A DNA stretch of 14,301 nt from Escherichia coli (GTDB taxonomy: Bacteria > Pseudomonadota > Gammaproteobacteria > Enterobacterales > Enterobacteriaceae). The DNA is taken from assembly GCF_003334405.1 (NCBI RefSeq), contig NZ_QOWM01000030.1; one strand, 5' to 3'. This document shows, one piece after another, positions 5,663 to 11,507 of the stretch; the first letter of the stretch is position 1; each line of letters starts with the position of its first letter. The notes beneath the pieces were generated by a model, which was given only the letters and a program-made list of their open reading frames with translations, was not told the origin of the DNA and did not search any database. The position numbers were made by a program, and so were the translations under genes.

Positions 5663-6115
5663 TCAGAAAGTAAGGGTAGTGCCATCACTTAACGTGACGC
5701 CAGACAATGAGATCGACTTCACCGTGACGGATGTACCTGGAAGCTGGCTGCCAGTGGTGACGCTTGTCTGACGTCCATCAGCCATGCGAAGAACGGCATG
5801 AAGACGTTTATCTTTGCCGTTTATTTCCATAATGATGGGCAATTCTTTTCTGTTTTTCGGTGCCGTTTTCTCTGAAACTGATGGCAAGGGGGCGGTCACA
5901 CCAGAGAAACCTGAAACAGTTTCAGATGATGAAGTAACATCTGATTCTTCAAGTTGTTTCTGTAACTGTGCACCCTGAACTTTTGCCTGTAAAAGAATAT
6001 TCCGGTTTTGTTGTGCTTCAAGTTCTCCTATTGTGACAAGAGGTTGTGTTGTGGCAAATGAAAAACCAGAGAAGAAAAATATGGAAGGAATAATGAGTAA
6101 TTTACTTGGACGCAT
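5663..6115 (-). CDS. pilP: Pilus assembly protein PilP (secreted/periplasmic, function unknown)
   Basis: 150-aa ORF with N-terminal signal peptide (MRPSKLLIIPSIFFFSGFSFA); its start overlaps the pilO 3' end by 14 nt; position in the operon. Confidence 0.65.
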   Translation of the reverse strand: MRPSKLLIIPSIFFFSGFSFATTQPLVTIGELEAQQNRNILLQAKVQGAQLQKQLEESDVTSSSETVSGFSGVTAPLPSVSEKTAPKNRKELPIIMEINGKDKRLHAVLRMADGRQTSVTTGSQLPGTSVTVKSISLSGVTLSDGTTLTF

Positions 6116-7397
6116 ATATATGACCTTCTGAGGAATAACTGAAAGTACCGCCGTTTAATTCAAAATGGATATTGCTCAGACGGACGCCGGTATCCTGAAG
6201 TAAAGGGAAAAATTCATCAGGATTTACAGGAGTTGATAAACTGAACTGATATTCTTTCCATTTCTGAACAGGGGCTGGTTCACCATCGTTGCCTGGTAAT
6301 GGCTCCGGTATGGCTATTTCATTAATGGCCGGTGTTAACTGTTTTTTCTGAAACCACGTGAACACCCGCATCAGTTGTTCTGAGGGGGCCGGGACAGCCT
6401 CGTCCCTGCCGGGCAGGGACGGCAGTGGACGGGTTACAGAAACCTGGCGTGCACCATCTTTAAGGTTAAAGTCAGGAATAACACCAAAGATTTCTTTACT
6501 TCTTGCCAGAAAACCCTCAATGGTTCCTCCAGGCTGTCGTTCGTAAATCAGTGTGAATGTCTCAGGAGTACATGTTCCACCGGTAAGTTTCCAGCCTTCC
6601 AGTGCGACCGGTGACGGTTTTCGAAGGTCCGCGCAGGCTTTCAGAAAATCACTGATTACAGGTTGTGATGCCCATGGATGCGGGAGTTCTGGCGGTGGAT
6701 CGGGCTTTTTAAACTGCAATCTTGCCCGTGCAGCTATCTCCTCGGGCGTCGGTACGACATCCGGCTCTGGCTGAGTCATCCAGAATACAGTGCCTGCGCC
6801 GGCTGCTACTAAAAACAGTACGGCAGGCAGTGTGAATTTGCTGCGATTGCCGACAGTAAGTTTGCAACGGCGGAGATCTGCTGATGATAACCGGGTAATA
6901 ATACTTTCCCAGTTATCAGGATGTTCCAGAGACGATACAACCTGCCATTTTTCGGGGGGCTCTTCGTTCATCGCCAGAAAAAGGCTGACCTTTTGGGCAA
7001 CGTCGGCATCATTTCCTGATAAGTCAGCCATAACGGCAGGCTGGCCATTAATGGAAGCAAGGAATAAGAGCTCCTTATCGCTGTACCGGAAGACACCGTA
7101 TCCATTTCTGACCCATGAGCAGAAAGCCAGTGCCAGGGAAAAATAATGATTGCGTTCTGGCCTGGTCAGTATTCCTGTGCCGGTAAGGCGGCTGATCTTT
7201 CCACGGGAATTTCTGCTGCCTACAGTCACTTTCAGGGAGGTAAGCCGTCTGGGTTTTACATGAGACTTGTGTTTATGATGTGAGGGGACGCGCTGTTTTT
7301 TTACGACAGGAGTCCATTTAAGACAGGCAGCCCACACGCGATGATTTACTTTAGGATCTGCGAGAAGCACTACCGGGTTGATATCTTCATCAGCCAT
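6102..7397 (-). CDS. pilO: Pilus assembly protein PilO (function unknown)
   Basis: 431-aa ORF with AGGAGG RBS 6 nt upstream of the ATG at 7397; start overlaps the pilN stop by 8 nt; one internal hydrophobic segment (LPAVLFLVAAGAGTVFWM). Assignment by operon position and size. Confidence 0.7.
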   Translation of the reverse strand: MADEDINPVVLLADPKVNHRVWAACLKWTPVVKKQRVPSHHKHKSHVKPRRLTSLKVTVGSRNSRGKISRLTGTGILTRPERNHYFSLALAFCSWVRNGYGVFRYSDKELLFLASINGQPAVMADLSGNDADVAQKVSLFLAMNEEPPEKWQVVSSLEHPDNWESIITRLSSADLRRCKLTVGNRSKFTLPAVLFLVAAGAGTVFWMTQPEPDVVPTPEEIAARARLQFKKPDPPPELPHPWASQPVISDFLKACADLRKPSPVALEGWKLTGGTCTPETFTLIYERQPGGTIEGFLARSKEIFGVIPDFNLKDGARQVSVTRPLPSLPGRDEAVPAPSEQLMRVFTWFQKKQLTPAINEIAIPEPLPGNDGEPAPVQKWKEYQFSLSTPVNPDEFFPLLQDTGVRLSNIHFELNGGTFSYSSEGHIYASK

Positions 7398-9085: not shown

Positions 9086-9523
9086 TTAGTTAACGTAGAC
9101 GACAGAACCAGCAGTAATGCCTGCCGGGGGTGTCAGACCGGTTGCAGTTCCTGATAGCCAGGTGAGTTGCCCGTTTTGGAAGATCCCTATTAGTGCAGAA
9201 CCACGACTTTTTGAACGCAAAGTTTCAACAAGTCCTGGTTGTTCAGGCATCCATACCCACAGACGTCCCTGTTGTAACTGATGTTTAATTCGGGAGTCCG
9301 GAGTGACAGGGAGAGCCAGTTTATCTGAAGAAATTACTCCGTCCTGCTGGCCTGATACGTATCTGATATCATTGATTCTGTTAGCAATCATTAGTATCTG
9401 ACTTGCCCATACAGACGCACTTGCATATTGCTGGGCGTTCGTGGTTTCAGACATCTGCTGATTCTGGTAGCTTCCAGTGATAATCAGAATGGTCAGGCCG
9501 ACGGCCATGACCAGCCATCCCAT
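9086..9523 (-). CDS. pilM: Pilus assembly protein PilM (small membrane-anchored protein)
   Basis: 145-aa ORF with an N-terminal transmembrane segment (MGWLVMAVGLTILIITG); its start codon overlaps the pilL stop (TAATG at 9521-9525). Confidence 0.65.
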   Translation of the reverse strand: MGWLVMAVGLTILIITGSYQNQQMSETTNAQQYASASVWASQILMIANRINDIRYVSGQQDGVISSDKLALPVTPDSRIKHQLQQGRLWVWMPEQPGLVETLRSKSRGSALIGIFQNGQLTWLSGTATGLTPPAGITAGSVVYVN

Positions 9524-10590
9524 TAGCGACCATCCCTTGTATCAGAAACTGTAATGATGCACTGCATGCGAGAAGCCTGTGCGTATAAAGGTTTTTGCGC
9601 AGTCCGATATAACTCAAATACCTGCTCCATGGCTGATTCAAATGATCCCCGGAACATTAAAGGCGCATCCAGACGGTAATCGGTTACAGAAAGTGGCCAT
9701 ATGACCATCCAGTGCGTTGATGCCATGCTTTCGCATTTTGTTTCTTCTGCCCACTTGATAATGTTCTCTCTTAATGTGGTGCCTGCCGGCGCACGCCACT
9801 CTTTACCCTGAGATACCGGTTTAACAGGCGTTCCGGTCATGAGCGGGATAGACTTGACTGTGGAGCCGGTTGGAGTCGGGGTGGTGGCGGGCGTTGACGA
9901 AGATACGTTGTTTCCCCTGAATGGATTTCGTGGTTTGTTCTGGCTATTTGCTGTCGTTGGAGATTCAGGGGTAGTGGATGTGGTTACCATGGCTGCTGGC
10001 GAGATAGTGGTTGCCGTGTCCTGTGTCGGTGCAGCAGCTGATGTTGTGACGGTCAACGTTTTATTATCCCAGTCCAGATGGCCCCAGAGGTGTTGTTCTT
10101 CCAGCAACCGGTTCAGAGAACGGGTCCACTGATCATTGGCAGACCATGAAACCAGTTTGGTATTCAGCTTGGGCGTGGCTGCATTCTCTTGTCTGAATTT
10201 CCATCCTTCCGGTAGTAATGTTTTTATCCACTGACTGACGGTCCGGTTACGGGCCGTCGGCGATAGTGTTACAGGGGCGCTACCAGGCTTGCCTGTAATG
10301 ATTAACCGGGAGAAATTCTGACTTATTGTTGGTGAAGGTAACGGTCGGGATTCGCTAACAGGCTGTGCTGTTTTTACTGTCTCTGGCACGCTGACTCTCG
10401 GGGGCGGAGTTATTTTAGGTGGAGAAAGACGTTGTTGCGTAAGTGCCAGAACGCCAGCACTCTCACTGATTTGTCCGTCAACAAAAACCAGAGCAGGCGT
10501 ATCTGATGGTGCCACGTTATTACTGCCGGAAATTCCGGCACAGCCGGATAATAATGATGGCAGTATAAGTGTCAGATAGTTTTTTTTCAT
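9523..10590 (-). CDS. pilL: Pilus assembly lipoprotein PilL
   Basis: Lipoprotein signal with lipobox (LPSLLSGCAG); 355 aa; Pro-rich then Ser/Thr/Pro-rich low-complexity segment (residues about 181-258); GGAG RBS 8 nt upstream of the ATG at 10590. Confidence 0.7.
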   Translation of the reverse strand: MKKNYLTLILPSLLSGCAGISGSNNVAPSDTPALVFVDGQISESAGVLALTQQRLSPPKITPPPRVSVPETVKTAQPVSESRPLPSPTISQNFSRLIITGKPGSAPVTLSPTARNRTVSQWIKTLLPEGWKFRQENAATPKLNTKLVSWSANDQWTRSLNRLLEEQHLWGHLDWDNKTLTVTTSAAAPTQDTATTISPAAMVTTSTTPESPTTANSQNKPRNPFRGNNVSSSTPATTPTPTGSTVKSIPLMTGTPVKPVSQGKEWRAPAGTTLRENIIKWAEETKCESMASTHWMVIWPLSVTDYRLDAPLMFRGSFESAMEQVFELYRTAQKPLYAQASRMQCIITVSDTRDGR

Positions 10591-10623
10591 AACGGAGACT
10601 CCGTGTTCGTATATACGTGTTTG

Positions 10624-11214
10624 TTAATTGGTGTGAGGCGGCTGGAGAGGACGAATGACGACTGTCATTCCGTCCGAATGCAAATGCGGGAGAGACCACT
10701 GAAATAAGAGATATACAAAAGGAATTGATAATCTTTCATACAGACTTGTTTTCCGTGGGCATGTAATAACAGAGAAATTCAAACCATAAGATTCCAGTCT
10801 CTTTATAAGTTTATTTATTCTTGCAGGAGTAAAGAGATGTGAATGCATAACAATGGTTTCATCATTATTAATTGCTTTTGATATCAGAGAAAGTAACACA
10901 TCCCAGTGTTTCCTCATTGACTCCGGGCAACGTGTATCGGCATAGGGGCTAAGATGTATGCTTGATTCTTTACTGCCTTTTTTTTTCGTAAAGAATGTGA
11001 AGTTGTATTTAGATACAGACCTTACGATAAGAAGTACGCATCTGAAAAGTAGTGGGGAAAAGCAAATAATAACCACTATACAGAAATATAATATATAAGA
11101 TAGTGATATGTGGTCAGTGTATAGATAACGGAAGTATTGCCACGGGGTAGTGATGTACAGGCAAAAAGTACACCAAAGTAACCATAGATATAATGGTACG
11201 TTATTATTTTTCAT
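10624..11214 (-). CDS. pilK: Hypothetical membrane protein (two N-terminal TM helices plus soluble domain), possibly PilK-like
   Basis: 196-aa ORF immediately upstream of pilL on the same strand; its ATG overlaps the stop of the preceding ORF (ATGA at 11211-11214). Strongly AT-rich compared with the flanking pil genes. The pilK name is inferred only from position and size. Confidence 0.45.
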   Translation of the reverse strand: MKNNNVPLYLWLLWCTFCLYITTPWQYFRYLYTDHISLSYILYFCIVVIICFSPLLFRCVLLIVRSVSKYNFTFFTKKKGSKESSIHLSPYADTRCPESMRKHWDVLLSLISKAINNDETIVMHSHLFTPARINKLIKRLESYGLNFSVITCPRKTSLYERLSIPFVYLLFQWSLPHLHSDGMTVVIRPLQPPHTN

Positions 11215-11507
11215 ATTAGTTGACTTTTAATACTGTTTTCTATCACCACATTTTTATGTGTCTCATTTGGCACTTCGTACTGTTGGAAATATTGTTGGCG
11301 GCGGATGCGTGTCTGTTCACTGCTTTCTATTAACACCGCCATGGCGATTGCAAAGTATATGCAAATCAGGAAAATCCAGAACGCGTTTGGTATCTTCCAA
11401 AAAAGTGTGGACAGTTTGTTATGTGGTGAAACTAAAATCGGAGAAAGGATTCCACAGACAATCACAATAGCGATGGTTAATTTAACTAGAAAGAACATGG
11501 TAAACAT
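11211..11507 (-). CDS. pilJ: Hypothetical small membrane protein (two predicted TM helices), possibly PilJ-like
   Basis: I prefer the ATG at 11507 (98 aa, MFTMFFLVKLTIAIVIVCGI...), which has GGAG 7 nt upstream; the track start at 11564 is a TTG with no RBS. AT-rich. Translationally coupled to the downstream pilK-like ORF. Confidence 0.4.
   Translation of the reverse strand: MFTMFFLVKLTIAIVIVCGILSPILVSPHNKLSTLFWKIPNAFWIFLICIYFAIAMAVLIESSEQTRIRRQQYFQQYEVPNETHKNVVIENSIKSQLI
11453..11500. repeat. 48-bp direct repeat, copy A (inside the 5' coding region of the pilJ-like ORF)
   Basis: cacagacaatcacaatagcgatggttaatttaactagaaagaacatgg matches copy B at 11595-11642 at 44 of 48 positions, offset 142 bp. 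Confidence 0.8.

Follow-up and report, generated by a model that had tools for sequence, protein, structure and literature searches.

The window, by which is meant the whole 14,301-nt stretch of DNA that was analysed, is, as judged from its sequence, the thin-pilus (type IVb) pil operon of an IncI1-complex conjugative plasmid. The ORF list was compared with annotated plasmids, and the contiguous minus-strand ORFs were found to match the IncI1-complex pil operon in order and sizes, with the regulatory genes traC and traB (NusG-like) lying upstream of the pil ORFs. The 1-kb pilK-pilL region (10300-11300) gave 1353 plasmid matches in PLSDB at 90-99% nucleotide identity, nearly all of them from Escherichia, Salmonella, Shigella and Klebsiella and typed as IncI-gamma/K1 or IncI1/B/O with MPF_I. 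The window as a whole is mosaic: its best overall PLSDB match, made up of several pieces that together cover 99% of the window, reaches 98.9%, and no PLSDB record is identical to it. The pilK-pilL segment is closest to pSTY1-1898 (99.3%).

The pilL CDS (9523-10590, minus strand) encodes a thin-pilus biogenesis lipoprotein of 355 aa with a C-terminal TcpQ domain, identified by translation and by Pfam (PF10671, residues 264-350, E 3.3e-15; the sole Pfam match of PilL), and the product is 97-99% identical to annotated PilL lipoproteins. The domain and this identity support the name pilL that had been given to the gene in the original prediction. The neighbouring pilK-type CDS (10624-11214, minus strand; 196 aa, 36% G+C) was assigned by position and nucleotide identity. 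PilK matched no family when Pfam and NCBIfam were both scanned, and PilL, PilK and PilJ gave no match to NCBIfam HMMs; PilK is recognised solely by where its gene lies and by nucleotide identity to ORFs that related records label 'hypothetical protein' or 'pili assembly chaperone', or pilK in the case of MF554637.1. The ORF at 10624-11214 stands where R64 and ColIb-P9 have pilK, and its earlier description as pilK-like was upheld. The N-terminal ~65 residues of PilK are strongly hydrophobic, with a KKK motif directly after. Both pilK and pilL are taken here to be needed for the R64 thin pilus. A TnSeq table gives values of 1.00 for PilL and 0.50/0.46/0.04 for PilK (PMC4288162).

Position and coding context of the runs

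Two long homopolymeric runs lie in these genes, as A on the coding strand and T on the plus strand. The pilL run (A8; plus-strand T8, 10580-10587) starts directly after the ATG start codon (10588-10590, minus strand), which is the annotated pilL start in pSTY1-1898, R64 and others. The run had been reported at 10581-10588; it is real, but its true position is one base to the left, because the pilL ATG appears on the plus strand as CAT at 10588-10590. In the context ATG AAA AAA AAC TAT CTG (M-K-K-N-Y-L) the A8 occupies pilL nt 4-11, that is, codons 2-3 as first described and also the first two bases of codon 4 (AAC), which that description had left out. A Shine-Dalgarno sequence, GGAG (10599-10602, minus strand), was located from the sequence 8 nt 5' of the ATG, inside a small palindrome, ACGGAGUCUCCGU (10592-10604). 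In the predicted RNA fold of the initiation region the Shine-Dalgarno lies in a 5-bp hairpin and the A8 is unpaired, and the region is not unusually structured in comparison with shuffled sequences (z-score 0.22).

The first codons of pilL encode a lipoprotein signal peptide, read from the translation as MKKNYLTLILPSLLSG followed by cysteine (10540-10590, minus strand), with the lipobox L-S-G-C17. It has a basic n-region (K2, K3), a hydrophobic core and the lipobox, and K2 and K3 are the only charged residues ahead of the PilL lipobox.

The pilK run (A9; plus-strand T9) was found at exactly the predicted position, 10978-10986 on the minus strand, corresponding to nt 229-237 of the ORF. It forms codons 77-79, AAA AAA AAA, in the context ACG AAA AAA AAA GGC (T-K-K-K-G), and the three lysines that it was said to encode are K77-K79.

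Expected number and spelling of the runs

Within the 14.3 kb of the window there are 22 homopolymers of at least six bases, of which the T9 and T8 are the longest, followed by three T7. In sequences simulated with the composition of the window, A/T runs of eight bases or more occurred on average 0.6 times per window at Markov order 0 and 1.1 times at order 1, and two or more of them, including one of at least nine, were present with a probability of 0.07 to 0.18 over the two orders. Markov orders 3 and 5 were discarded as uninformative, because both reproduce the runs themselves, and orders 0-1 were used together with codon-usage reasoning. The runs are no more numerous than chance would allow.

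Lysine is spelled AAA in 125 of the 156 Lys codons of the eleven pil ORFs, and AAG in the other 31. Elsewhere in the window seven more KK dipeptides are written AAAAAA, and pilN, in the same operon, likewise starts ATG AAA AAA. With pil codon usage, the probability of A8 is ~0.64 for KK followed by Asn (AAY) and that of A9 is ~0.51 for KKK. As AAA makes up 125/156 of the Lys codons, A8 and A9 are the single most probable spellings of K-K-N and K-K-K. The more cautious of the two readings offered earlier, that the runs may just reflect Lys codons in AT-rich sequence, is borne out by this codon bias and by the chance simulations.

Length of the pilL run in related plasmids

PLSDB was searched with probes of ~80 nt in which T8, T7 or T9 was placed between common flanks of 33 and 39 nt, and identity of at least 99% was scored as an exact match. 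Exact-flank records numbered 685 for T8, 14 for T7 and 3 for T9, and two further T9 records had one flank SNP. Such counts take identical flanks only, so that alleles one base longer or shorter in SNP-bearing flanks are undercounted; an evenly spread sample, in which 58 of 59 full-length T8-probe matches span exactly 80 nt, suggests that the bias is small. The T8 was also found in all five lineage representatives, and ~98% of the ~1350 related plasmid records have exactly eight A in pilL. In none of the IncI1-complex lineages sampled does the A8 vary at a synonymous position, and the flanking 70 nt are equally conserved.

A T7 run in pilO (7296-7302) served as control, with 480 exact T7 and 4 exact T6 records in PLSDB (0.8%). 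The frequency of T7 at pilL, 2.0%, is nominally higher than the 0.8% of the control (Fisher p=0.15). The comparison of run lengths among related plasmids, which had been proposed as a check, accordingly gives a length polymorphism of ~2% that is not significantly above that of the control run.

Twelve pilL records with runs one base shorter or longer and 7-kb flanks were compared with T8 references over 8-14 kb. Eight of these carried 5-32 other one-base indels, overwhelmingly in homopolymers, which indicates sequencing error; CP120716.1, for instance, has 11 homopolymer deletions in 14 kb, and five more pilL T7 records, outside the 12 compared, belong to the same submission series. We infer that most of the deposited one-base variants are sequencing errors. 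In RCS29_pI (NZ_LT985238.1) the pilL T7 is the sole indel in 11.4 kb, and in pCombat13F7-4 (NZ_CP019249.1) the T9 is the sole indel in 11.5 kb; pN17S1442 (CP052820.1) has T7 and one other indel (T7>T6), and pH2291-112 (NC_025176.1) has T9 and one other indel. These four clean or near-clean records may be real loss-of-function mutants or isolated errors. Among metagenome contigs that have the pilL flanks with a 6-10-nt gap between them, 14 of 16 carry T8. Both exceptions belong to a single sample of low coverage; they are located 101 nt from the ends of their contigs and have one additional base other than T (C+T8 and G+T9). At the level of the databases there is essentially no length polymorphism above error, the variants being mostly in error-laden assemblies.

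The pilK run and the starts of distant pilL homologues

The pilK segment is of the R64/window type in 403 of ~1350 plasmids. The R64 form, gccaT8cgc on the plus strand, which reads AAA AAA AAT (A-K-K-N-G), is present in 332 records, and the exact T9 of the window in five other PLSDB records. A further ~11 records match the T9 probe with one mismatch; one of them, L027, was verified as AAA AAA AAG, still T-K-K-K-G, and the same spelling is probable in the other ~10. The remaining ~950 of the 1353 plasmids have the ColIb-P9-type sequence AAG AAG AAA AAG (V-K-K-K-K-G). Within the run, the A9 of the window differs from R64 in the third codon only (AAA vs AAT), with the length unchanged. Since relatives carry AAA AAA AAG, AAA AAA AAT or AAG AAG AAA AAG, the pilK run varies by substitution and not by length.

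For the R64-type pilK A8, one-base variants in PLSDB amount to 4-5 T7 and one T9, vs 332 T8, a rate similar to that of the pilO control (p=0.50), and all of these variants lack an annotated CDS under the match. The plasmids RCS48_pI and RCS49_p differ by one mismatch in 11 kb and by four one-base indels, namely pilK T8 vs T9, pilL G8 vs G9, A6 vs A7 and one G, a pattern typical of homopolymer miscalls.

PilL homologues in other plasmid families were found by tblastn, and five gene starts were read: ATG AAA AAA CTT in pLAP2 of Enterobacter (46% identity to PilL), ATG AAA AAG AAA in p3521 (IncB/O, 40%), TTG AAA ATA in a Serratia plasmid (31%), ATG AAA AAG ATC in an IncI2 plasmid (28%) and ATG AAA ATC in pYR4 of Yersinia ruckeri (27%). 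All five proteins (27-46% identity) have one or two basic residues, a hydrophobic core and the lipobox cysteine, and none of the five gene starts has a run longer than six. To judge from these starts, the conserved feature in PilL is the predicted signal-peptide design, without the homopolymer. Interruption of the runs in functional homologues had been named beforehand as an outcome that would speak against a switch, and the runs were found to be interrupted or shortened in complete, predicted-conjugative plasmids.

Reading frames after a one-base slip

Both shifts were translated for both runs. Loss of one A in pilL (A7) gives MKKTI-stop and gain of one (A9) gives 23 aa; in pilK, A10 gives 81 aa and A8 gives 99 aa, the shifted frames stopping after 2 and 20 further codons. 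No open alternative frame follows either run, so neither hides a second product such as those of dnaX or mxiE. In PGAP annotation, pilL of the T7 records begins at an upstream in-frame ATA (IRTRSLRYEKNYLTL...), with the whole signal peptide kept, and pilL of the T9 records is given a downstream start. These alternative starts are annotation rescues and not evidence of expression.

Slippage sites are usually recognised by a sense-strand run of nine or more A or T, a length that the pilK A9 has and that the pilL A8 does not reach; A9 belongs to the length class discussed for such sites (PMC1088944). A programmed frameshift or slippage product was considered and rejected, as the shifted frames close at once. 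An RNA element was likewise rejected, because an Rfam scan of the window returned no RNA family and the fold of the pilL initiation region is like that of shuffles.

Interpretation

The reading that we prefer, with a probability of about 0.86, is that both runs are incidental by-products of Lys codons. In PilL, K2 and K3 provide the positively charged n-region of the signal peptide, and Asn4 (AAC) supplies the two further A that make the run A8. In PilK, K77-K79 form a basic cluster after the hydrophobic N-terminus, which would fit a juxtamembrane positive patch with a putative role in topology. The basic residues are plausibly needed by the two proteins, in a replicon that spells ~80% of its Lys as AAA. 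Like any A8 or A9, the runs are somewhat more prone than average to one-base indels and thus at most ordinary warm spots for mutation, and the pilK A9 is just long enough for RNA polymerase slippage to become relevant; they would not be kept as a switch and give no alternative product. In E. coli, indels become exponentially more frequent as runs grow longer (PMC8510543), and in many bacterial genomes selection against slippage-prone runs shows from nine A/T onwards (PMC1088944). Non-programmed heterogeneity of transcripts at the pilK A9 allele is plausible.

The runs might instead tune expression, which we consider unlikely: A-rich codons would keep pilL initiation open, and slippage or sliding at the pilK A9 would lower or diversify PilK. 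The A8 is indeed unpaired in the predicted pilL initiation fold, with the Shine-Dalgarno in a weak hairpin, and the start of pilN has the same ATG AAA AAA, but the fold is no different from shuffles, and the benefit of AAA to initiation is generic, involves no discrete element and is compatible with the runs being incidental. For pilK, dnaX and mxiE offer examples of programmed slippage at A9/T9 runs, and selection against slippage-prone runs becomes evident at nine A/T (PMC1088944); against this, neither shifted frame continues into an extended ORF after the run, and the A9 itself is rare, being present in 5 records and the window out of ~1350, one position within the run from R64.

A contingency locus, in which slipped-strand mispairing at the pilL A8 and/or the pilK A9 would reversibly frameshift the thin-pilus genes, is very improbable. 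Piliated and non-piliated cells would then always coexist, for example for escape from I-pilus-specific phage or for cost saving. The runs do lie in thin-pilus assembly genes, that of pilL at the very start of the gene, where many phase-variable genes have their tract, and alleles with one base more or less have been deposited (17 exact-flank and 2 other records for pilL, ~6 for R64-type pilK), at least two of the pilL variants being the sole indel in >11 kb; the exponential dependence of indel rate on run length (PMC8510543) also favours slippage in principle. Yet ~98% of pilL records are at the ON length, with no broad length distribution, most of the variants are in assemblies full of homopolymer errors, and the control pilO T7 behaves alike. 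The pilK run is missing or interrupted in ~99% of relatives, including by the synonymous change AAA>AAG, and distant pilL homologues break theirs. Three features that define a contingency locus were tested: both runs are coding runs in which a one-base change truncates the product (to 5, 23, 99 or 81 aa), but length polymorphism and conservation beyond protein need both fail.

The recognised variation device of the thin pilus is the shufflon, in which Rci acts on pilV, and not these runs. In mismatch-repair-proficient enterobacteria, moreover, the mutation rate of A/T runs of 8-9 lies orders of magnitude below that of recognised phase-variable tracts. The frameshift on/off switching of pilus assembly proposed in the original prediction is thus unsupported, as run length is ~98% fixed, the control run is alike and the run is broken in relatives. 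A narrower version, in which the pilL A8 is a low-frequency contingency tract that turns the thin pilus off, with the -1 allele partly rescued via the ATA start and with RCS29_pI and pCombat13F7-4 as natural OFF variants, is the least probable of these readings.

IncI plasmids rank among the major carriers of ESBL and AmpC resistance genes; were the runs switches, these plasmids would possess, in addition to the shufflon, a second and unrecognised route of variation of the mating pilus. The evidence points to the incidental origin set out above, the runs being the spelling of a Lys-rich signal-peptide start and of a basic patch in an AAA-preferring replicon, and the finding is an ordinary one. 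It has a practical side for long-read assemblies, in which one-base errors at both runs and at the G8 of R64-type pilL are a recurrent source of false pilL and pilK pseudogenes and of odd pilL starts.

Comparison with known systems

Contingency loci of the simple-sequence-repeat kind are known, for example, as poly-G/C tracts in surface-structure genes of Neisseria, Campylobacter and Bordetella. The pil runs resemble them in that a homopolymer lies in the 5' part of an appendage gene and that a one-base change destroys the frame. They differ in being shorter and A/T-based, without a population of alternative lengths, and in not being conserved beyond protein need, the pilK run being a rare allele. 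With the programmed slippage sites of Thermus thermophilus dnaX (A9), Shigella mxiE (T9) and IS elements (A9), pilK shares the nine A in the sense strand, but has neither a shifted-frame ORF nor conservation of the run among homologues.

The closest counterparts are the pil operons of R64 and ColIb-P9, which have the same order pilI-J-K-L-M-N-O-P-Q-R-S-T-U and the same sizes on one strand. PilL of the window shares the MKKN start and the A8 of R64, whereas in pilK the AAA AAA AAA of the window stands against AAA AAA AAT in R64 and AAG AAG AAA AAG in the ColIb-P9 type. Many ColIb-type and pESI-type plasmids also carry a ~295-bp insert between pilK and pilL, unlike the window. Both the division into R64-type and ColIb-P9-type pilK and the insert in some plasmids have already been described (PMC8004404). 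Both genes are familiar from IncI1-complex plasmids as pilK and pilL, and nothing here departs from known biology. Residues 1-17 of PilL (MKKNYLTLILPSLLSGC) fit the general plan of bacterial lipoprotein signal peptides, with basic n-region, hydrophobic core and lipobox L-x-G/A-C, and differ from it in nothing unusual, the A8 being this plasmid family's spelling of the n-region.

Homopolymer tracts in pilL and their annotation

A second homopolymer tract was located about 180 nt into pilL in plasmids of the R64 type: a G8 without interruption, read as C8 on the coding strand, lies at about position 6855 in R64 (L006) and at about 6459 in two further relatives (L025 and L026). The window counterpart of this tract is GGGGGCGG (10400–10409, GGGGGCGGAG). 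Length differences of ±1 were found at the G8 in several records, among them the near-identical plasmids RCS48_pI and RCS49_p, which differ from each other as G8 versus G9. Judged by sequence comparison, the G8 is a second homopolymer hotspot of pilL, in lineages other than that of the window.

At the tract at the start of pilL, records with seven T are annotated by PGAP from an upstream in-frame ATA, giving a protein that begins IRTRSLRYEKNYLTL... (WP_031222642.1), and in those with nine T the start is placed downstream (WP_148116004.1). The annotated pilL extends over 5977–7065 in the length-variant relatives L009, L011 and L014 and over 5977–7029 in L015 and L017. Frameshifted or miscalled pilL therefore enters RefSeq as intact protein with an odd start.

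The 18.6 kb plasmid record NZ_CP027396.1 contains two oppositely oriented copies of the pilL start region (hits H42 and H101), with eight T in one and seven in the other; this arrangement resembles an inverted duplication, or else a misassembly. Two low-coverage contigs of one human-gut metagenome sample (OPZZ01; L029, 7729–7767, and L031, 11582–11621), each ending 101 nt beyond the pilL tract, have an additional base ahead of it (C+T8 and G+T9), which probably arose in assembly of the homopolymer near the contig end.

The pilK ORF and gene junctions

The pilK ORF (10624–11214) has a G+C content of 36%, versus 46% for the window. Its product, the N-terminal third of which is very hydrophobic and rich in aromatic residues, had no family match in Pfam or NCBIfam, and is labelled 'hypothetical protein', 'pili assembly chaperone' or pilK among related records. 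A TnSeq table for pESBL (PMC4288162), with column meanings unchecked, lists 0.50/0.46/0.04 for PilK versus 1.00/0/0 for PilL.

Four nucleotides (ATGA, 11211–11214) belong to both the pilJ stop and the start of pilK, and the pilL stop and pilM start have one base in common (TGATG, 9523); this tight abutting of coding regions suggests that translation may be coupled along the pil operon. The pilK–pilL spacer is 33 nt long (10591–10623) and includes a perfect 6+1+6 palindrome, ACGGAG-A-CTCCGT (10592–10604), spanning the pilL Shine–Dalgarno sequence. By RNA fold prediction its hairpin was weak, and the region folded no better than shuffled sequences.

Relationship to other IncI plasmids

In many ColIb-P9-type and pESI-type plasmids, the pilK–pilL spacer (at about 592–919 or 7045–7372 in L004, L005 and L007) contains an insertion of about 295 bp, which is absent from the window, R64 and pSTY1-1898. 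The PLSDB search returned no record identical to the window, and NZ_KU932030.1 was among the best whole-window matches (98.9%). Across pilK–pilL (10300–11300), identity to NZ_KU932030.1 was only 95.4%, versus 99.3% to pSTY1-1898. By these identities the window is a mosaic, the nearest plasmid of its pilK–pilL segment differing from that of the whole.
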